Assembly (NCBI GenBank): GCA_964645795.1
Contig: CAZYCL010000001.1
Span: 159,194 to 223,193, forward strand
Origin: an uncultured Planctomycetales bacterium
GTDB lineage: Bacteria; Omnitrophota; Gorgyraeia; Gygaellales; Profunditerraquicolaceae
DNA length: 64,000 bases
Reading direction: 5' to 3'
The position numbers and the translations under genes were made by a program. The notes beneath the pieces are model-generated. The model searched no databases. It was not told the origin of the DNA and worked only from the letters and a program-made list of their open reading frames with translations. Below are positions 3,951 through 52,185 of the stretch, piece by piece; the first letter of the stretch is position 1, and each line of letters begins with the position of its first letter.

Positions 3951-5555
3951 TTATGTCCCCGATATCCAGTTCTTCAGTGCTTCTGCTACTTCCTTAGGTT
4001 TCTCTCTTGCTAATACCTCCAGCTGTTTATTTAACTCCGGCTCCTTGGAGCCCGCGGCCAGCCCCGTCGAAGTTATGACGTCGGCAAGCCTGGTCTGGCC
4101 CGGTACGGGTATAGCGGCGACTTCTTTTGCCCGCTTTACCTCCTCGGCGGCTTTTCTAACCACCGTCTGGTGCCTGATCATGGAAACAGCAAACAACAAT
4201 ATTATGATGGTAACGAATATTACGCTTGCGGTCTTTACGGAGCTGGATATAAGCTCTTTGGTAGCCAGCTTGTCCATCTCCTTCTTTTCCTGCTCCAGGT
4301 ATGTCTTATCGAAATCTACGGTCTCTACTACTATCTGATCGCCTCTCTGCTGGTTAAGGCCGATGCCGGATGAGACCGCCTGTTTAATAGTGTTTATCTT
4401 TTCTGCGGGGAGGTTGCCATCAAGCAGCACCGCCACAGACAACCTTTTTATCTCACCCGGAGTGGAAATGGAGTGCGCGACTTTCTTGTTGATCTCGTAA
4501 TTGGCTACGGACTCATCCTTTGTATAATCGGAGCTGCCGCCGCTTGAGGATGTCTGCTGGTAACCCGGGACATTACCTATATTAGTAGTGGCGCCTGGCA
4601 CGCCTACCCCGGCGGTTGAGCCCGTGCCCTTGAAGTATTCGCTCTTTTTCTGCTGACTTCGCAAGATTCCGCCTTCTTTCATGCCTTCGATCGGCACATA
4701 CGTCTCTTCGGTAGCCTCCTTCTTGGCCAAATCAATCTCTACCGTTGCCCTGACTACCGCCCTGCCCGGGCCAAGGATCCTGGCAAGCATCGAGGCAACC
4801 TGGCTCTCGACGTGAGTCTCCAGCTGTTTTTTAAGCTCGTACTGAGAACTGACTATTTCTGAGGTAAACGCGTACTGGTCTTCGTCATAAGAACGGGATA
4901 AGAGCGTGCCGTTGGTATCGATAACCGAAATATTATTCTCCTTTAAACCTTCAACGCTGGTTTTTACCAGATTAAGGATGGCCTTGATCTGTCCTTTTTC
5001 GATTCGCGCAGACGGCTTGAGCTTTAAGATCACGCTGGCGCTAGGCTCCTTTTCTTTTTCGGTGTAAAGCTCTTTTTCGGGCAAAACCAGGTGCACCCTG
5101 GCCTGCTCGACCGCGGATATCTGGCGGATCGTACGCTCAAGCTCACCCTGCAGGGCGCGCTGGAAGTTAAGCCGCTGGGTAAACTCGGTCATCCCCAGGA
5201 AGTTCTTGTCGAATATCTCAAAACCAACCCCCCCTCCCTGCGGCAGGCCCTGGCCGGCCAGCGATATACGCGTTTCATATACGCTCTTTGCCGGAACTTT
5301 TATGGTCTTTCCGCCGTCAGCGAGCTGGAACTGTACCCGGGTTTCCCTTAATTTGACAACAATGGCGCTGGCATCTTCCGGTCCGAGATTGGTAAAAAGC
5401 GGCGCGTAATCTGTGCGGCCGGCATAAAAGGATATGGCCACTAATGAGCCGAGAATCACCAGTGAAAAGACGGCAATCAATACCCTCTGCTGCGCATTGA
5501 GCCCCTGCCAGTACTTCTGGAACTGTCCCTGCAGTCTCAAGATTAGATCCTTCAT
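3951..5555 (-). CDS. fliF: Flagellar M-ring protein FliF
   Basis: 534 aa; N-terminal TM segment, typical FliF N-terminus (LNAQQRVLIAVF...), C-terminal TM segment. Confidence 0.9.
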   Translation of the reverse strand: MKDLILRLQGQFQKYWQGLNAQQRVLIAVFSLVILGSLVAISFYAGRTDYAPLFTNLGPEDASAIVVKLRETRVQFQLADGGKTIKVPAKSVYETRISLAGQGLPQGGGVGFEIFDKNFLGMTEFTQRLNFQRALQGELERTIRQISAVEQARVHLVLPEKELYTEKEKEPSASVILKLKPSARIEKGQIKAILNLVKTSVEGLKENNISVIDTNGTLLSRSYDEDQYAFTSEIVSSQYELKKQLETHVESQVASMLARILGPGRAVVRATVEIDLAKKEATEETYVPIEGMKEGGILRSQQKKSEYFKGTGSTAGVGVPGATTNIGNVPGYQQTSSSGGSSDYTKDESVANYEINKKVAHSISTPGEIKRLSVAVLLDGNLPAEKINTIKQAVSSGIGLNQQRGDQIVVETVDFDKTYLEQEKKEMDKLATKELISSSVKTASVIFVTIIILLFAVSMIRHQTVVRKAAEEVKRAKEVAAIPVPGQTRLADVITSTGLAAGSKEPELNKQLEVLAREKPKEVAEALKNWISGT

Positions 5556-9936: not shown

Positions 9937-10146
9937 CGTCGCTCCTTTTCAATGAGCACATAACTTACACAAGTCCGCTGGAAGCGGACGACGTAAGTTA
10001 TAGCGCTACTATGAATACGCTTTTGCGTGTGCGAATTGAATCCTTGACGCTTGCCTTAAATATTTAATCAGGGTAAGCGTCAAGGATAAATTCGGACATA
10101 AACTTACGTTCGCTCGCTTTGCTCGTTTTGTAAATTTAGTCCTCAT

Positions 10147-11118: not shown

Positions 11119-11565
11119 TTAGTCTTTTCTTAAATGCAGGGGGCCTAATTTCCGCACGTTCTCAACCATCTCATGGGCTACGCGCACGAACTTGTCGCCT
11201 TCGCTGGCCGAAACCCAATCAAGCATAAACCTGTTATCTTCGATGCCAAAATCCTTTAAAGCTTCCTTAAAAAGCTTATAGCGCCTCAGGGCCTTGTAAT
11301 TGCCTTCCTTGTAATGGCAATCACCGGGATGGCAGCCCAGGATTATTACCCCATCAGCGCCTTCCCTGAACGCCTCAAGGACAAATTGCGGGTCAACCCT
11401 GCCGCTGCACATGACCCTGATGATCTTGATGTTAGGAGGAAAATCCTTCTGCGACCTTCCTGCGGAATCAGCGCCAGAATAAGAACACCAGTTACACAGT
11501 ATACCTACGATTTTAGGCTCAAACTGTACCATTGTTCCTCCTTTGGCCTCAGAACAATTCTTCAT
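11119..11565 (-). CDS. mvhD: Methyl-viologen-reducing hydrogenase delta subunit MvhD
   Basis: 148 aa; GILCNWCSY...CSGRVDP...ILGCHPGDCHY motifs typical of MvhD. Confidence 0.85.
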   Translation of the reverse strand: MKNCSEAKGGTMVQFEPKIVGILCNWCSYSGADSAGRSQKDFPPNIKIIRVMCSGRVDPQFVLEAFREGADGVIILGCHPGDCHYKEGNYKALRRYKLFKEALKDFGIEDNRFMLDWVSASEGDKFVRVAHEMVENVRKLGPLHLRKD

Positions 11566-11687
11566 TGATTACACAGATTAAAAAACTGATTACATAGATT
11601 AAATCTTAAAGCCGTTTTTTGTCCCAATCTGCGTAATCCCGTTTCTAATCTGTGTAATCTCGCTTCTTATCTGTGTAATCATTCTTT

Positions 11688-13655
11688 CTAACGCAGAAGA
11701 GCTTTTATCTCTTCAAAGATCTGCTCGTCGGTAAAATGCTTGCCGACAATGGCGCCGCTCGGGCATGCTGCCACGCACACGCCGCAACCCCTGCAAAGGA
11801 TATCGTTGATGTGGGCGCGCTTCTTGGCCTCGTCAAATGTTATCGCCTTGTAAGGACACAACCCCACGCAGGACTTGCAGCCCGAACAGTTATCCTCGAT
11901 GACTTCGGAGACCCGGGGGTCAAGCTCAAGCTTCTCTCCCGGGACTAGGCGAAAGAGGATCCTGCCGGCGGCAGCCTGGCCTTGTTCGACAGACTGGCCC
12001 ATCTCCATCGGCGCCACACAGCAACCAGCCACAAATACGCCCTCTGTGGTAGTAGACACCGGCGCTAACTTGCCGTGCTCTTCAACGAAGAATCCAAACT
12101 TATCTACTCCCACATCAAAGATCTGCGCCAACTCCACAGCCCCTTTAACCCCCTGGATACCCGTACCCAGTATCACCATATCGAAACCATCGATCTCCTG
12201 GACATGGCCGGTTTTATAATCGGGGAATTTAACGCTGATCCCTGAGTCCTTCTTATGCACCTCTACGGCCTCGTGGTTAGAAGTGCGCACGAATTCTACT
12301 CCATGCTCCTTGCTTACCTTATTAAAGAACTTCTGGCCGTCCTTGCCGGTGAGGCAGAAATCAGAGTAAATGTTGACCAAATGCGCATCGTGAAGCTGAT
12401 GCTTTATCAACTCGATGAATTTAAGGTTCTCCTGACAGCAGATGCCCGAACAGTAATCCAGGTACTTTGAGCTGCGGGAACCTGCGCAATTAATAAGCGC
12501 GATCTTCTTGGGGGGCTGTCCGTTCTTAAGCAGAAGCTTGCCTTGTGTGGGGCCGGTGGTGCTTAAGATCCGCTCCATCTCGACGTTATTATAAACGTCT
12601 TCGATCGTTGGCCAGCCGTATTGAGGCGCCTTGGAGCAATCAAACGCCTCAAAACCGGTAGCCAGGATTATGGAGCCGACCTTGACCTCGATCAACTCAT
12701 CCTTGTCTTCGTAATTTATCGCGCCGAACGGACAGGCAACCTGGCAGGCAGTGCAATCCTGGCCCTTAAAACGCAAGCAGTTGGCCTTATCCAGGACCGC
12801 AAGATTGGGCAATGCCCCCGGATATGGCATGTAGATGGCGCTGCGTTGGTTAAGCCCCTCATTAAGCTCATTTTTTACTTTGACCGGGCAGGCCTCGGCA
12901 CATGCCCCGCAGCCAAGGCAGGCGTCTTTATTGACAAAGCGGGCCTTCTTGTTGATCTTAACATTGAAGTTACCAAGGAAGCCGGTGACCTCCGCTACTT
13001 CGCTGTAAGCAAACAATTGAATATGCTCGTCGTGAAGTATCTCGTCAAGCTTATGCTCGAGCATGCAAGGGGCGCACTCCATGCGCGGGAACGCCTCCCC
13101 AAAACGGTTAAAGGTGCCTCCGATACAGGGGAGCTTTTCAACGAGATAGACTTTTCTCTGTTTCTGGGCAAGGGTCAGTGCCGCATTCATGCCGGCAACG
13201 CCTGAGCCAACTACCAGGACATCGGGAATGCAATCGATCTGGCGGGGAGTAAGCGGCTGGTGCAAAGCTACGCGTTTGACCGCTGCCTTTATCATCTTTT
13301 TGGCATGTTCGCTGGCCTGGTCCTTGTCTTTCATGACCCAGGCGCAATGCTCGCGGATATTGGCTATTTGAAGGAAATACGGGTTTAAACCGGCGTCCTG
13401 CAGGACTTTTTTGAAAGTTGCTTCATGCTCGCGGGGGGAACAGGCGGCGATGACTACGCGGGTAAGCTTCTGCTCTTTTATGTCGCGGGATATCTCGTCC
13501 TTGCCTTCGGCGGAACAGAGGAGCCGGAAAGGCTTTGAAAACACAACATTCTCCAAACTCCTGGCAGATTCTACTACTTCTTCGAACTTCAGGGCATCCT
13601 TGATATTCGGTCCGCATTCGCACACATAGACACCGATTCTTTCGCTCATAGTCAT
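11688..13655 (-). CDS. hdrA: Heterodisulfide reductase subunit A-like flavoprotein (HdrA)
   Basis: 655 aa; FAD-binding GSGVAGMNAA motif and multiple 4Fe-4S ferredoxin Cys motifs. Confidence 0.85.
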   Translation of the reverse strand: MTMSERIGVYVCECGPNIKDALKFEEVVESARSLENVVFSKPFRLLCSAEGKDEISRDIKEQKLTRVVIAACSPREHEATFKKVLQDAGLNPYFLQIANIREHCAWVMKDKDQASEHAKKMIKAAVKRVALHQPLTPRQIDCIPDVLVVGSGVAGMNAALTLAQKQRKVYLVEKLPCIGGTFNRFGEAFPRMECAPCMLEHKLDEILHDEHIQLFAYSEVAEVTGFLGNFNVKINKKARFVNKDACLGCGACAEACPVKVKNELNEGLNQRSAIYMPYPGALPNLAVLDKANCLRFKGQDCTACQVACPFGAINYEDKDELIEVKVGSIILATGFEAFDCSKAPQYGWPTIEDVYNNVEMERILSTTGPTQGKLLLKNGQPPKKIALINCAGSRSSKYLDYCSGICCQENLKFIELIKHQLHDAHLVNIYSDFCLTGKDGQKFFNKVSKEHGVEFVRTSNHEAVEVHKKDSGISVKFPDYKTGHVQEIDGFDMVILGTGIQGVKGAVELAQIFDVGVDKFGFFVEEHGKLAPVSTTTEGVFVAGCCVAPMEMGQSVEQGQAAAGRILFRLVPGEKLELDPRVSEVIEDNCSGCKSCVGLCPYKAITFDEAKKRAHINDILCRGCGVCVAACPSGAIVGKHFTDEQIFEEIKALLR

Positions 13656-13941: not shown

Positions 13942-15531
13942 TTAAAACTCCTTAAGATTCTTACCGTCCTCCTCGAACGGAATAACATCCTCAGGCTTGC
14001 TTACTCTTACCCCCGAAAATGATCCCTTCATATCCTTTGAAGACGCTGCCAGCCTATGTCTTTCGAGCGACCTGCGGTCATGGCCAAGAAGCTTGGCTTT
14101 TGGGTCGATAAGGGCGTTCTTTGCCCCGCCTACGAGGTCGGTGAGTCCGGCAACAAGGCTCTTTAAAAGCTGGGCTTGGGAAGAAAGCTCCTCGGCGCTT
14201 GCCGCTGTTTCTTCGGCGGCGGAAGCGGTCTCGTGAGTTGCGGTGCTCACCTCGGCCACAGAACAGGCAACATTAGTGATGGCCTGCGACTGGTCAGAGC
14301 TGGCTTTGGCGATATCGGCTACAATATCGGCTACCTTGTTAGCATGGTCGCTTATATCGTTCAATGCCCCGCCTACTTTTTTGGCAATCTCCGAGCCGTT
14401 CTTGGCCTTAGAGATGTTATCCTCGATGAGGCTGGCTGTATCTTTGGCAGCCTCAGCGGAACGCTTGGCAAGATTTCTGACTTCCTCGGCTACTACGGCA
14501 AAGCCTTTGCCGTGCTCACCGGCCCTGGCTGCTTCAACCGCCGCATTCAAAGCCAGAAGATTGGTCTGGAAGGCGATCTCCTCGATAGTCTTAATGATCT
14601 TGGAGATCTTGTCAGAAGACTGGTTTATGGCCGACATCGCCTGTTCCATCTCTTGCATGGAGACATTTCCCTGTTCGGCGGTTCGTTTTGTATCCTGGGC
14701 GATATTGTTGGCTTTCTGGGCGTTTTCCGAATTCGAGAAGATCACCGTATTCATCTCTCCCAGTGAATCGGTAACCTGCTGAACGCCTGAAGCCTGCTCT
14801 GTAGCCCCTTGCGAAAGCTGTTGAGACGCAGAAGCGACATGAACGGAGGCGTTGGTGATCTCGTTAGCCGAGGAATCAAGGTTCTTTACCGTAGCCAGGA
14901 TCGGCTTGGCAATGGAGTTTCCCAGCAGGACGGTCACTGCTATCCCGGCTAAAATGATTATTGCCGAAAATACAAGGATGACGGAATTAATCCTGCCGGT
15001 GGTAGCCGAGACATACCCCTTGTCAAAACCGGTAAACCACATCCCGATAATCTGGTTAGCTTGATTTTTTATCGGAGAGTATTTTGACAAAACCTCTTTT
15101 CCCACGACATTGGCGATACCGATAAAATCCCTGCCTTCCCGGAGCACTTTCTGGTTGACCTCTTCCGAGACTTTCGTTCCCACGGCCCGGGAACCGTCCT
15201 CTTTGATCACGTTAGTCGCCACGCGGGTGTCAGCGGCAAAAATTGTAACCAGGGCGCCGGTGCTTGCCTTAATTTTATCCACAAACTCCCAATCACCGTT
15301 AAACAAATGCTCGCCCTTATAAAGCTCGTTACCCCTGAGGGACCACTCGCCCGGATAACTGGTTTCCAGAAAATCGCGGGAAAGCTTATGCTCAGTTTCA
15401 AGCTTAGATATGATAAGATTGTTGGAAAGCCTGCCGACTTCATGGCTTATGAAAAAATACACCCCCAGGCCGAACAATAGGAACAAAGATACGGTAGGAA
15501 TAGCAATTCTTTGCTTCATGCTGAACGCCAT
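13942..15531 (-). CDS. Methyl-accepting chemotaxis protein with periplasmic Cache-type sensor
   Basis: N-terminal TM, sensor region, second TM, then an MCP signalling domain ([38 protein letters not shown]). Confidence 0.9.
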
Positions 15532-16300: not shown

Positions 16301-17959
16301 CTAAAACTCTTTCAGGCGATGGGCCTCATCTGCGGACAAAGCTTCATCGGGCCTGGTGATCATTGGGCCTGCATTATCCTGTTTAGCGGACCTGCCGGGT
16401 TCTGCGCTTTTCTGGGGTTTATTGGTTTGCGCGTGCCCCGCGCCATGCTTTAGCTGCTTCCTTCTTTCGCAAGCACTATCTATGCGCTCCTGGCTCTGGG
16501 CCAATGCCACCCTTAAACCGCCTATGACCTGAGCCAGCTCAACGATCAACCCCTTTAGCATCTGCGCCTGGGAAGAGAGCTCTTCGGCGCTAGATGCGCT
16601 CTCCTCGGCGGAGGCGGCGGTCTGCTGGGTAACCTGGTTCATCTGGGTGACGGCATTAGTGATCTGGTTTATGCCGCTGGACTGCTCCTTGGAAGCCGCG
16701 GCGATCTCCGCTACGAAATTAGCCACCTTGGTTGCCTGCTGGGTGATCACGTCAAAAGAAGTCTCGATATCTTTGGAGTTATCGAGGCTGGCTTTTGCCT
16801 TGGACATATTATCTTCTATGAGAGTAGCGGTATCTTTGGCCGCTTCCGCTGATCTCTTAGCCAGATTCCTTACTTCTTCGGCCACCACCGCAAAACCTTT
16901 GCCGTGCTCGCCTGCGCGCGCGGCCTCAACCGCAGCGTTCAAGGCCAGAAGGTTAGTCTGGAAGGCGATCTCCTCGATGGTCTTGATGATCCTGGATATC
17001 TTATCGGAAGACTGGCTCAACTCATGCATCGCCTCGCCCATCCTGCCCATGGCAATAGCCCCGGCTTCGGCAGAAGCCCTTGCTTCCTGGGCTATTTCAT
17101 TGGCCTTGGAGGCGTTCTCGGCATTCTGGTTGATCATGGCATTCATCTCTTCAAGAGAGCTGGATACCTCTTCAATAGACGAGGCCTGCTCGGTAGCCCC
17201 CTGGGAAAGCTCCTGGGAGGCTGCGGCAACTTCTGTAGCCGCGATAGTAGTCTGGTCTGCGCCGGAGTTAAGATTATAGGCGATGCGTTTTACGGGCCTG
17301 GCAATAGACCTGGCAAATAATACCGACACAACCGTAGTCGCCAGGAAAAGCAGAATAACTATAAACAAAGTCCAGTAGATAACCTTACCCACTTCTCTTT
17401 CGACGTCGTCTATATAAATACCACTACCCACGATCCAGCCCCACTTGGGATACAGCTTAACGAAAGAAATCTTAGGGTACTGCTTGGGATCGCCTGGTTT
17501 TCTCCAATAGTAATTTACAAACCCCTCTGCCTTCTGCCTGCAGACATTGACCATCTCTACGAAAAGCGCCTTTCCCGTAGGGTCCTTATAATCGATTAGG
17601 CTCTTGCCGTTAAGATCGGTGGTGATGGGGTGCATGATCATGCGCGGCTCAAGGTCGTTTATCCAAAAGTAATCATTATCGCCGTAACGCATGGCTCTTA
17701 TTTGCTCTATGGCCTTGCCCTGAGCTTCGGACAGAGAAAGCTCGCCCGCCTCCACCCTGTTGCCATAATCGGCGATGACGCTGAACGCCGCTTCCACCAG
17801 CTGCCGCGTCTTCAAGTATTTGGCATCATAAGCGCTGTTTCTGAACATCGGGACTATCCAAATCAGTATAAGAGAAAACGCAAGAGCGATACCGATGCAC
17901 AACAGCAGTATCTTGCTAAAAATACCCATGTTCTTGAACATCTCCCCCTCCTTTTTCAC
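16301..17959 (-). CDS. Methyl-accepting chemotaxis protein with sCache_2-type sensor
   Basis: [16 protein letters not shown] sensor motif; MCP signalling domain nearly identical to that of the other MCP. Confidence 0.9.
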
Positions 17960-25887: not shown

Positions 25888-25928
25888 TGTTATGTAACTT
25901 CGGACTATAATAAAAGTATATAGCCATT

Positions 25929-26005
25929 GAAAAGGCAAACTAGCAGTAATGCTGGGGCGCAAAGCTACAGCCCCGACTCTTAAGTCGGGGGGCTGAGCTG
26001 CCAAA
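25929..26005 (+). ncRNA. c-di-GMP-I (GEMM) riboswitch aptamer, copy 1
   Basis: GGCAAAC 5' element. P2 hairpin with GNRA (GUAA) tetraloop. GGGCGCAAAGC junction (Vc2 has GGACGCAAAGCC). P3 hairpin CAGCCCCGACU/AGUCGGGGGGCUG. P1 closure GGCA/UGCC. Confidence 0.7.
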
Positions 26006-26021
26006 GGTGAAGCTTGGTGCG

Positions 26022-26077: not shown

Positions 26078-28150
26078 ATGGGTATGGGACAGCTGAATAA
26101 ACTGGAGCATTATTTTAATCCTCTGAGGCTGCAGCTTATGCAGGCAGCCAGCAATATCATGAACCCTGCGCACATGCAGAAGATCAACGCCAAGATCCAA
26201 AGCTTGGCCAAAAACATTAATCCCCTGAAAGCAAAGGCCCATACCCAGCAGGATGTCTCGGTTAAGATGCAAGGTAGCTACACCGCCACTGCCTCCGTTC
26301 AATCTCAGCGGACGGGTAACGTGTTGAATGTCCTGGCCCAGTACAATGCCAGCGGCAATACCGCTTCCCAGCTTAACTCCAACCTATCCCAGACACAAAA
26401 TATAAAAGTAAACCAGGGTCAGCCAAAACCCGGGTATGCAAATCAAACCATACAGCTTGATCAAAGCCGCAATGTCCTGAGCAACTCTTCGTTCGATCTT
26501 GCCAGGACCGTTGACTCCACTATTGTCTCCAACGCTTACCAGAAAGTGGGCGGCTCTATAAGAGAAACCAGCATCACTACTAATACCAATCAGGATTTAA
26601 GCCGCTTGCAGAATACCAATGCCGTTACCGAAACAATGCGCAATGTAAGCAACACGGATAATAAAGGTAATGTCGTAGGCAATGCGTTTAGTCATACAAT
26701 AGTAAACCAGGAAACCAGCTCCGCCCTGAATCAAAACACGGTAAGCTCCCTCCAACGCGACGTGCTTCAGGATACCACAATCAGCAAAGCTAATATCGCA
26801 GGCGTAGCTATAACCAAAACACAGATAGATACGCAGGACACTCGCAGCGGCTCTACCAACATCCAAACCAACAGCCTGACCGATTATGCTGCCACGGTAA
26901 CCAGGCTCAACCAAGAAGGCCAGGTAATCGGCGTCCAGGATTCTAACCGGGTTAGCGAATCCAACGAAGACAGAAATATCGTCATGCAACAGAATATTAA
27001 CACGGAAAGGGAGATCCTCTCTCTTGCTAAGGGGCAGGAAAGAGTGAGCCTTGATACACAAAAGACCGAAGGCCAGCTGACCCAAAATACAAATGCCGCC
27101 GCTGCGACCGTAGTCACTAACCTCGCTCCTGACGGCTCGACCATATCGACGCAGGCCTATCTTACCAATACCGCCTCTACCCTTAATCAAAGCACCAATA
27201 CCGACATCAACCGCATCGTCAACCAGGATGCCGCAGGCGTGCGCGGAGCAGGAGAGCTAAGCAGTAAAGTAGTCACGGACATTGACACCAGGATAGAGAG
27301 CACCGCGCCCAACGGAAACGTCGCGGTGCGCGAAATCGAAAGGAATATCCAGGACCAGAACTCCGCTGCCTGGGCAGGGGCCATCGAGTTAACTAATCTC
27401 GAGGGGGGCGGCAGACTCTATAGCCTTAAGAACGTCGATGTGGGAAGCCGCGTAATCAACGACGTCACTAAGGAAGGTGTCAACGAGCTTAGGGTCAATA
27501 CCGACACCGCAACCGCCAAAATGGTTAGCGGAAGCGTCCAATACCAGCCGGCCGAACAGGTGACACCCGTCGGAAATGTCGCAGGTGCCGGGGTAGGAAT
27601 AAGCTTTGCCACCTATAGCGGTATTGCCAGCTCCTTTAAGCTGGATACGGGCGAGGTAAACTTCAGCTTCTCCTTCGCTTCTTCAGAGATCACCTCAAAA
27701 GAGACCGCTAAGTCTGTTGACGGAGAGCTGGCAAGCGAAGCCACGGCGCTTTCCGGCCAAAAGAACCAGGCGCAACTGGAAGGAAAACTCACTTCAACAG
27801 TGCTTGAAGACGGCAGCCGCCTGATCACGGTAAACGCCGCCTATGATAGAAGCGGCTTAAAGATGGTCACGGAAGGCGAAAAGAAAGGCGAGTTTGCACA
27901 AGCCGAACAAGATACCAATGTTCAATTACAGGGAACGATCCTGGTAAGTAAAAACGGGGAGGTAAAGACAGTAGAGTCTTCTTTCGACATGTTCAAGACA
28001 GAAGACTCCGAGGCCTCAGGCACAAGCGTTTCAGCGGTCAAGAACGCCCTGGCGCAGACAGACCCGTTGCGGAAAAACTTCTACTTCGATAACGGAACGC
28101 TCAGGTTCAACCTTGGCTTTGCGACGCTTAACTTCTCGGTCTACGCTTAA
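26078..28150 (+). CDS. Large Thr/Asn/Gln/Ser-rich hypothetical protein (690 aa, no Cys, no signal peptide) under riboswitch control
   Basis: AGGAGG Shine-Dalgarno 7 nt upstream of the ATG. Long polar low-complexity N-terminal part and beta-strand-like C-terminal third. No recognisable family. Confidence 0.7.
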   Translation: MGMGQLNKLEHYFNPLRLQLMQAASNIMNPAHMQKINAKIQSLAKNINPLKAKAHTQQDVSVKMQGSYTATASVQSQRTGNVLNVLAQYNASGNTASQLNSNLSQTQNIKVNQGQPKPGYANQTIQLDQSRNVLSNSSFDLARTVDSTIVSNAYQKVGGSIRETSITTNTNQDLSRLQNTNAVTETMRNVSNTDNKGNVVGNAFSHTIVNQETSSALNQNTVSSLQRDVLQDTTISKANIAGVAITKTQIDTQDTRSGSTNIQTNSLTDYAATVTRLNQEGQVIGVQDSNRVSESNEDRNIVMQQNINTEREILSLAKGQERVSLDTQKTEGQLTQNTNAAAATVVTNLAPDGSTISTQAYLTNTASTLNQSTNTDINRIVNQDAAGVRGAGELSSKVVTDIDTRIESTAPNGNVAVREIERNIQDQNSAAWAGAIELTNLEGGGRLYSLKNVDVGSRVINDVTKEGVNELRVNTDTATAKMVSGSVQYQPAEQVTPVGNVAGAGVGISFATYSGIASSFKLDTGEVNFSFSFASSEITSKETAKSVDGELASEATALSGQKNQAQLEGKLTSTVLEDGSRLITVNAAYDRSGLKMVTEGEKKGEFAQAEQDTNVQLQGTILVSKNGEVKTVESSFDMFKTEDSEASGTSVSAVKNALAQTDPLRKNFYFDNGTLRFNLGFATLNFSVYA

Positions 28151-51996: not shown

Positions 51997-52022
51997 TTAG
52001 TTGTAAAAATTAGGAACCACTG

Positions 52023-52180
52023 AAAAAGGCAAACTAGCAGTAATGCTGGGGCCCCGCCGACTAAGGCGGGTCCCTCCTGACGAAAGCCGGGAGGGAGCAA
52101 AGCGACAGTTCCCACAGGGGAGGCGCCCAACCTTAAAGGATAGGTTGGCGTCCGCTTGTGCGGAGGGCTGAGCTGCCAGA
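52023..52180 (+). ncRNA. c-di-GMP-I (GEMM)-like riboswitch, copy 2 (variant with about 80-nt insertion of extra hairpins)
   Basis: First 27 nt (AAAGGCAAACUAGCAGUAAUGCUGGGG) are identical to copy 1. A GGAGCAAAGCGACAG junction-like segment is present. The 3' GGGCUGAGCUGCCA is identical to copy 1. Confidence 0.5.
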
Positions 52181-52185
52181 AGTAA

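Follow-up and report, generated by a model that had tools for sequence, protein, structure and literature searches.

The closest described counterparts of the element reported here are the REPINs, which are doublets of repetitive extragenic palindromic (REP) sequences, together with their REP-associated tyrosine transposases, the RAYTs (PMC3116915, PMC3337134). We analysed a stretch of 64,000 nucleotides, which will be referred to as the window, from an uncultured bacterium of the Omnitrophota deposited as a member of the Planctomycetales (GenBank assembly GCA_964645795.1, contig CAZYCL010000001.1, positions 159,194 to 223,193 of the forward strand). In this window, an array of five 13-bp motifs (13-mers) occupies the spacer between the genes hdrA and mvhD of a hydrogenase operon. 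The array is a member of a family of palindromic modules that are dispersed over many phyla, and in longer members of this family the same 13-mers bracket a single small gene encoding a GxxExxY protein. We consider it probable that the window array is a non-autonomous, gene-less derivative of a selfish element that carries this gene.

As in the REPIN/RAYT systems, extragenic spacers contain gene-less modules of short inverted repeats that are able to form hairpins, one small gene is flanked by these repeats in inverted orientation, and several copies per genome are found, with partly vertical inheritance at fixed sites. The two systems differ in that the flanked protein has a predicted PD-(D/E)XK nuclease fold here and is an HUH Y1 transposase there, that an arm consists of 2–6 non-palindromic 13-mers at a phase of 21 bp instead of one palindromic REP, and that the repeat sequence is common to several phyla. 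Mobilisation of the array as a REP or REPIN element by a RAYT, i.e., by a Y1 transposase of the IS200/IS605 type, would account for a hairpin-capable doublet of short inverted repeats which is scattered in extragenic space and also flanks a single small gene. It is nevertheless scarcely credible in view of the fold assigned to the flanked gene product (PF13366/TIGR04256), of the 13-mer, which is itself no palindrome (GATTACACAGATT is not self-complementary and on direct reading holds a direct GATT...GATT instead), and of its occurrence in many phyla, as REP families are lineage-specific.

The ends of transposons (the TnsB sites of Tn7, L1-L3/R1-R3 of Mu, IS21 and Tn402/Tn5053) and the miniature inverted-repeat transposable elements (MITEs) derived from them also carry phased direct sites at each end, with the ends mutually inverted and tips of the type TG...CA; unequal site numbers, such as the 2 + 3 in the window, are typical. 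Here, however, no transposase gene lies between the arms, the core is not bordered by a target-site duplication, and the whole element measures 80–120 bp, or approximately 500 bp with the nuclease gene. Homing endonuclease genes, with I-Ssp6803I as an example of a PD-(D/E)XK homing endonuclease, are comparable in being small nuclease-fold genes that occupy narrow gaps between conserved, jointly transcribed host genes and in varying in presence among relatives. They are, however, not known to be bracketed by phased inverted arrays or to leave gene-less palindromic derivatives, and the nuclease role of GxxExxY is a predicted one. Finally, operators of multimeric repressors, for instance the tandem ARG boxes for ArgR with their two-turn phasing, likewise present sites with a 21-bp phase on the same side of the helix, but true operators recur at the promoters of orthologues and do not extend beyond a regulon, whereas the present array is absent from orthologues and stands beside unrelated genes. 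Readings as integron attC sites, CRISPR, iterons or DnaA boxes were rejected on sequence and context, based on direct reading and general knowledge.

The 13-mer array of the window

Reading of the region and a pattern search confirmed five 13-mers in the hdrA-mvhD intergenic region, as stated in a preliminary description of this DNA. They have the consensus GATTAC[A/G][C/T]AGAT[T/A] and are arranged in an inverted 2+3 layout, with the following components:

11566-11681, no strand: whole palindromic module 5'-TGATTAC...GTAATCA-3', gene-less member of the GATTACNNAGATT module family, 2 copies in one arm and 3 in the other
11567-11579, plus strand: outer 13-mer of the mvhD-proximal arm, GATTACACAGATT, 0 mismatches
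11588-11600, plus strand: inner 13-mer of the mvhD-proximal arm, GATTACATAGATT, 0 mismatches
11601-11625, no strand: loop of 25 nt between the arms, position of the GxxExxY gene in full-length elements
11626-11638, minus strand: inner 13-mer of the hdrA-proximal arm, GATTACGCAGATT, 0 mismatches
11647-11659, minus strand: middle 13-mer of the hdrA-proximal arm, GATTACACAGATT, 0 mismatches
11668-11680, minus strand: outer 13-mer of the hdrA-proximal arm, GATTACACAGATA, 1 mismatch

The span of the module includes the flanking T at 11566 and the flanking A at 11681. The two blocks are indeed mutually inverted, a plus pair being followed by three minus copies. Two details of the preliminary description had to be corrected. 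The reverse-complement motif AATCTG[C/T]GTAATC, reported three times, is present at 11626-11638 and 11647-11659, whereas the copy at 11668-11680 begins with TATCTG on the plus strand and thus deviates by one mismatch; and the spacing of exactly 21 bp between all centres is found, start to start, within each block, but not between the blocks, which are 38 bp apart from start to start, no multiple of 21. The spacers between the copies are A-rich (AAAAAACT in one arm, AGAAGCGA and AGAAACGG in the other), and according to a repeat search the arms of 34–36 nt are 81–82% complementary and constitute terminal inverted repeats.

Four exact matches to the 13-mer were obtained in the window compared to approximately 0.008 expected (128,000 positions/(4^11 × 2^2)); allowing two mismatches, 12 matches were detected compared to 4.1 ± 2.1 in shuffled sequences. 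A search for further occurrences, proposed earlier as a check, detected no other 13-mer with up to one mismatch in the 64-kb window, despite the presence of more hydrogenase-related genes and of chemotaxis genes there. Outside the window, a scan for two phased copies led to the module family described below.

A module family dispersed over many phyla

A genome collection represented by one genome per species was scanned for two phased copies of the motif (GATTACNNAGAT-N9-GATTACNNAGAT, 20 specified bases), yielding at least 120 loci where approximately one would be expected by chance. The matches listed derive from Omnitrophota, Planctomycetota, Elusimicrobiota, Deltaproteobacteria, Nitrospirota, WOR-3, Aerophobetes, Ratteibacteria and others. 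The family was defined by the order '++--', with a minimum of two GATTACNNAGAT(T) copies at a distance of 21 ± 2 bp on the first arm and a minimum of two reverse-complement copies on the second. The recurring layout comprises two 13-mers approximately 21 bp apart, a loop of about 15–16 nt and two inverted 13-mers; in the 55 compact cases among the matches listed the order was always '++--' and never '--++'. Copies on the same strand are mainly spaced by 21 bp, with minor classes of 20, 22 and 23 bp, and in the family profile the outer 13-mer is preceded by a T in 87% of cases. With the order '++---' and spacings of 21, 38 (39), 21 and 21, the window copy is a member of this family.

Across the phyla the 13-mers are conserved as sequence, the spacers are A-rich and otherwise variable, and the loop is unconserved. 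The modules favour a particular position, since 39 of 44 compact modules are placed between genes of the same direction, 0–50 bp away from each neighbour, as is the module in the window, and in some related genomes modules are kept at orthologous sites. The ordinary neighbours are housekeeping genes (prs, pth, rpsF, glmU) and promiscuous sensor kinases. Clustering of the open reading frames from the at least 120 motif-selected loci revealed no conserved neighbour family within 1.5 kb of the arrays with the exception of GxxExxY.

A plasmid collection contained no match to the module at the DNA level and only two matches to GxxExxY. Viral contigs yielded 10 matches to the pattern. They include a contig of a giant-virus metagenome-assembled genome (MAG) with four consecutive matches on the same strand (L215, 6256-6423), which probably represent a plain tandem repeat and not a module. 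In addition, two loci carry inserted sequence: in one of them, the loop of a GATTAC module contains a further palindrome of about 90 bp (L114, approximately 4258-4393), and in the other the left arm is followed by an unrelated hairpin-rich insert (L048). The module loops seem to accept further insertions.

Linkage to the GxxExxY gene

The one recurring array-linked protein has a size of approximately 122–126 amino acids and matches TIGR04256 ('GxxExxY protein') and PF13366 (PDDEXK_3) with E = 1e-34 to 1e-39. In five out of six cases among the motif-selected loci, the GxxExxY gene was located exactly between the plus arm and the minus arm. As this first set of loci had been chosen by the motif, the link was retested from the protein side using 80 metagenome loci, which were picked solely by similarity to array-linked GxxExxY proteins. 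At a GxxExxY identity of at least 50%, 24 of the 25 loci showed plus copies just upstream and minus copies just downstream of the gene, and the remaining one showed copies on one side. In these gene-carrying elements each arm contains 2–6 copies of the 13-mer, and the repeats directly adjoin the start and the stop codon of the gene; in the set of 80 protein-selected loci, it was GxxExxY that lay between the arms. Considering approximately 200 loci (rather than whole genomes), no transposase was detected between the arrays and GxxExxY was the sole recurrent gene between the arms.

Some contigs contain both gene-less and gene-carrying modules, in one case both with GATTACACCGATT-type copies (L152), and from their sequences such co-occurring modules appear to share motif variants. 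Two gene-carrying copies would be located between rpsK and rpsD, as read from the translated flanks only. A tblastn search yielded no GxxExxY homologue in the window, so that the window copy represents the gene-less form.

The GATTAC motif is absent around more distant GxxExxY genes, which are bracketed by other inverted arrays such as those of CACGAAT, CACGGAT, CACAGAT, CGAATGACA or ACGCAAAG with a period of approximately 10 bp; in 15 out of 29 distant loci the flanking inverted repeats exceeded the 95th percentile of mismatched controls. The GxxExxY gene of a Tolypothrix brevis MAG is accompanied by 2+2 copies of an unrelated 21-mer at a phase of 22 bp (L037, 3420-3455 and 3835-3870), and a gene of Treponema saccharophilum pTS1 annotated as 'GxxExxY protein' has inverted CACACGGATTCG flanks (L227, 1431-1446 and 1876-1891). 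The architecture is thus characteristic of the protein family, whereas the sequence of the repeats changes with the clade. The Treponema record derives from a cultured organism that is usable for experiments.

One subclade of GxxExxY genes (L143, L145, L146, L149 and L130) shows additional structures outside the element, namely a hairpin GACATCC-loop-GGATGTC directly before TGATTAC and a second hairpin AGGTATAATC...GATTATACCT after the element. These hairpins could reflect a target preference or be extra parts of the element.

Conservation of sequence and helical phase

The spacer of the window folds as RNA with -40.3 kcal/mol (z = -6.4) and leaves the Shine-Dalgarno sequence of mvhD unpaired. 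Whether the family is conserved as a hairpin or as a set of protein sites was evaluated by comparing the pairing of the arms with that of shuffled partner arms in 18 modules with strict 21/21 spacing. The spacers of opposite arms showed a complementarity of 0.36 compared to 0.46 for shuffled partners, and the variable positions of the 13-mers one of 0.63 compared to 0.59; copies within the same arm were more alike (0.74). Beyond the 13-mers, no covariation supporting a selected hairpin was found in these 18 modules. As there is no extra pairing outside the 13-mers, the conserved feature is the sequence of the 13-mer and its helical phase, and not base pairing. Conservation of this kind speaks for a sequence-specific protein that recognises the duplex DNA.

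These data also bear on the possibility that the module acts at the RNA level, as a hairpin in polycistronic transcripts that serves as a processing, stability or decoupling element similar to REPs and bacterial interspersed mosaic elements and is selected in operon spacers including that of hdrA-mvhD. Such a role would be consistent with the predominant position between closely spaced co-directional genes, with the strong predicted fold that spares the ribosome-binding site, and with the persistence of modules at orthologous sites in some related genomes. We regard it as improbable, however, because pairing between the spacers does not exceed that of shuffled partners, the 13-mers retain a common sequence in different phyla and do not covary, the operons most closely related to this one have an empty site (see below), and neither a U-tract nor a terminator is present. 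Moreover, a search of the spacer against Rfam 15 with a permissive E-value yielded only chance-level matches to microRNA, small nucleolar RNA and long non-coding RNA (at most 20.5 bits, E ≥ 1.5).

Lineage-specific insertion into the hdr-mvh operon

The location of the array between hdrA and mvhD in a hydrogenase operon, as described previously, is in agreement with the Pfam domains of the flanking open reading frames. Both flanking genes are encoded on the minus strand and are separated by a spacer of 155 bp:

11688-13655, minus strand: hdrA-like gene, 655 amino acids, HdrA-type FAD/NAD and 4Fe-4S domains (Pfam), upstream of the module
11119-11532, minus strand: mvhD, 137 amino acids, FlpD/MvhD domain (Pfam, E = 5.7e-53), downstream of the module

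The stop codon of hdrA is 6 nt away from the module. The GGAGG of mvhD at 11537-11541, seven bases upstream of the gene, lies outside the predicted hairpin. A HypA-like gene is located upstream of hdrA, and mvhD is followed by genes for the small and the large subunit of a NiFe hydrogenase and for a maturation protease. An identical MvhD protein is encoded on several metagenome contigs of the same strain, with a gap of 155 bp in all of them. One contig of this strain from an independent assembly (ERR4524290_53177; L122, L225) ends in the middle of the array and contains only the two mvhD-proximal copies; an assembly break inside the array is what one would expect if the assembler is misled by the repeat or by the palindromic structure of the latter.

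In the related operons compared, the hdrA-mvhD gap was considerably shorter:

MvhD 93% identical: gap 11 bp, array absent
MvhD 91% identical: gap 15 bp, array absent
MvhD 91% identical: gap 57 bp, unrelated small hairpin, no GATTAC motif
MvhD 83% identical: gap 19 bp, array absent
MvhD 75% identical: gap 33 bp, full synteny MCP-hypA-hdrA-mvhD-mvhG-mvhA-hycI-tusA (MCP, methyl-accepting chemotaxis protein), array absent

In alignments with these relatives the ribosome-binding site and the start of mvhD align, and the module does not. As the spacers of the relatives, which share the gene order hypA-hdrA-mvhDGA-hycI-tusA, comprise 11–57 bp and lack the motif, the array is a lineage-specific insertion of approximately 116 bp. 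It entered a short hdrA-mvhD spacer in this lineage only and is not an ancestral control element of the operon. The best named relatives of MvhD and GlgX (62–75% identity) are encoded in MAGs of Nitrospirota, Deltaproteobacteria, Omnitrophota and Endomicrobiales.

The preliminary description had interpreted the array as the operator of a multimeric transcription factor, which in response to hydrogen, redox state or nickel would control an internal promoter or a read-through block between hdrA and mvhD. One part of this view is retained, as the phased, inverted and sequence-conserved 13-mers with their non-complementary spacers fit sites for a multimeric DNA-binding protein, and the position within the operon would be compatible with a roadblock. 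The function as an operator is, on the other hand, contradicted by the absence of the array from orthologous operons with 75–93% MvhD identity and by its occurrence beside unrelated housekeeping genes in many phyla (at least 120 contexts), which form no coherent regulon; nor do the other hydrogenase-related genes of the window possess a copy. A regulated promoter or roadblock likewise received no support, since a consensus scan of 11300-11900 detected no sigma-70-like promoter (other promoter types being outside the scan), and no intrinsic terminator with a G+C-rich stem and a T-run was found in the same region. Control by hydrogen, redox or nickel is also disfavoured, the sole gene family linked to the array being that of a small nuclease-fold protein. 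A host operator is thus very improbable, and the comparative sequence data have largely refuted this model already. Consequently, the array should be regarded as uninformative on hydrogen, redox or nickel control of hdr-mvh and treated as an inserted repeat, which may perturb the polycistronic transcript.

Proposed mechanism and relation to transposons

We propose that the cognate GxxExxY protein recognises the 13-mers, which would bind it as a multimer on one face of the double-stranded DNA so that the arms are brought together, comparable to transposase sites at transposon ends or to the REPs around a RAYT gene. In the full-length form the arms tightly bracket the GxxExxY gene of about 122 codons, and in the gene-less form they enclose a short loop only; the protein would maintain or spread both forms. 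Binding of the 13-mers and mobilisation of the modules by GxxExxY are what we infer from this architecture. In the hdr-mvh operon the module would be a passenger that is transcribed within the polycistronic RNA, where its arms would fold (approximately -40 kcal/mol) and leave the ribosome-binding site of mvhD free. Any effect on the expression of hdrA relative to mvhDGA would be incidental. Such a side effect could be exerted by the RNA hairpin or, if the host makes one, by a bound protein.

Indications of proliferation came from three near-identical copies, including spacers and loop, on three contigs of a single deltaproteobacterial MAG (L001 at 1424-1600, L012 and L077). These copies are part of a subfamily from Deltaproteobacteria and Nitrospirota (further loci: L023, L025, L036, L068, L093, L112 and L114), in which the GATTAC core is central in an outer shell of about 55 bp with the terminal inverted repeats (G/C)AGCTTGTTGAAAAA. 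The ends of the shell carry a duplicated 4-bp YTAN (CTAA, TTAA, TTAG or TTAC), which is the signature of an IS5-like MITE. Other lineages show different shells around the same core, and the window copy has none. The shell-bearing elements are therefore nested or composite.

Supported by the IS5-like shell in this subfamily, the main rival to an origin from a GxxExxY element is a MITE of a conventional DDE transposon, in which the 13-mers would be subterminal transposase sites as in the ends of Tn7, Mu, IS21 and Tn402, and GxxExxY would be a frequent passenger. The several inverted sites per end, the conserved 5'-TG...CA-3' tips, the T preceding most outer copies, the shell ends with their YTAN duplication in one deltaproteobacterial subfamily and the several module copies per genome are all consistent with such a MITE. 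We nevertheless consider it unlikely. The motif-selected loci contain no recurrent neighbour family but GxxExxY, the same gene occupies the space between the arms in the protein-selected loci, and all close members of the GxxExxY clade examined are flanked by arrays on at least one side, nearly all of them on both, which would be unusual for a passenger. In addition, duplications at the core boundaries are missing and the window copy lacks an outer shell; the occurrence of different shells around one and the same core in different lineages suggests that the core is the unit. An RNA-level role and a host operator are less likely than this MITE because of the points raised against each of them above.

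Several observations weigh against the derivation of the window array from a GxxExxY element. The IS5-like shell with its YTAN duplication implies that at least some copies move by an ordinary transposase. Target-site duplications at the core boundaries were not found above the control rate in 64 modules (offsets 0–2, lengths 2–9), and none is evident around the window module. The relatives of the operon are too divergent for base-exact insertion boundaries, so that only the size difference is reliable, and an empty site with more than 95% DNA identity is wanting. Within 76 kb of the source genome (the window plus 12 kb of extra flank), neither a second module nor a GxxExxY gene is present; the window copy may be a relic, and a cognate GxxExxY in the host is unproven. 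Furthermore, the association between gene and repeats would also be expected if GxxExxY homes into pre-existing modules or is a passenger of them.

The GxxExxY protein family

The alignment of the clade revealed an invariant D and ExK, the D...ExK catalytic motif thus being kept. An AlphaFold model was obtained with a predicted local distance difference test score (pLDDT) of 91.5 and a predicted template modelling score (pTM) of 0.85. Its best matches among solved structures, none of them close, are PD-(D/E)XK nucleases, namely lambda exonuclease, Cas4 SSO0001, the nuclease domains of AddB/AdnAB, MGME1 and Hjc; a weaker match was obtained with the homing endonuclease I-Bth0305I (E = 0.036). 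According to this model, GxxExxY with its 122 amino acids is predicted to be a minimal PD-(D/E)XK nuclease fold. A sequence search of the PDB yielded no solved homologue, a PADLOC search with GxxExxY no match, and PHROGs a single marginal match to phrog_5928 of unknown function (E = 0.00039). Many representatives of the family (P0242, P0246, P0249 and others) are tandem two-domain fusions of approximately 250–280 amino acids, and a few lie within proteins of about 900 amino acids. The tandem fusions hint that the working unit of GxxExxY may be a dimer.

A profile search of 1.84 billion representatives retrieved 20,536 GxxExxY clusters (50% identity level) at E ≤ 1e-3. This family of some 20,000 clusters has no assigned function, and a keyword and full-text search found no literature on the 13-mer, on the function of GxxExxY, PDDEXK_3, PF13366 or TIGR04256, or on the flanking repeats. 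The link to the arrays provides this very large protein family with a first concrete and testable functional context. The modules are miniature palindromic repeats tied to one small gene as REPINs are to RAYTs. The gene here encodes an uncharacterised putative PD-(D/E)XK nuclease, and copies of the array without the gene are dispersed among the operon spacers of uncultured anaerobes. Should the nuclease recognise the arrays that flank it, the system would represent a nuclease-based counterpart of the REPIN-RAYT relationship, and in MAGs the modules would in addition give rise to assembly breaks and to spurious 'operator' calls.

More tentatively, GxxExxY and its clade-specific, helically phased inverted arrays might constitute a previously unrecognised class of prokaryotic selfish elements. 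Members of such a class would rely on a minimal PD-(D/E)XK nuclease in place of a transposase, colonise tight operon spacers across many phyla and spawn gene-less, REPIN-like derivatives, the hdrA-mvhD array among them; we regard this generalisation as possible, and as less secure than the origin proposed for the window array itself.

Further observations in the window

The spacer between mvhG and mvhA (9937-10146) comprises 210 bp compared to 8–24 bp in relatives and contains long inverted repeats with a fold of -76.6 kcal/mol (z = -6.9). It may represent another insertion that the operon acquired in this lineage. Its sequence bears no relation to the GATTAC module, and further copies were found neither in the window nor in any of the loci analysed.

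A c-di-GMP-I riboswitch aptamer (GGC type; c-di-GMP, cyclic di-GMP) was detected on the plus strand at 25925-26006 with 63.8 bits, above the Rfam gathering score, upstream of the open reading frame 26078-28150. A second match to c-di-GMP-I, at 52019-52181 on the plus strand, remained below the threshold (27.7 bits, E = 1e-4). The two matches have an identical stretch of 29 nt in common (25930-25958 and 52024-52052). Finally, two adjacent genes for methyl-accepting chemotaxis proteins share 418 bp at 72% identity (14402-14819 and 16794-17211), indicating that these stretches encode paralogous signalling domains.

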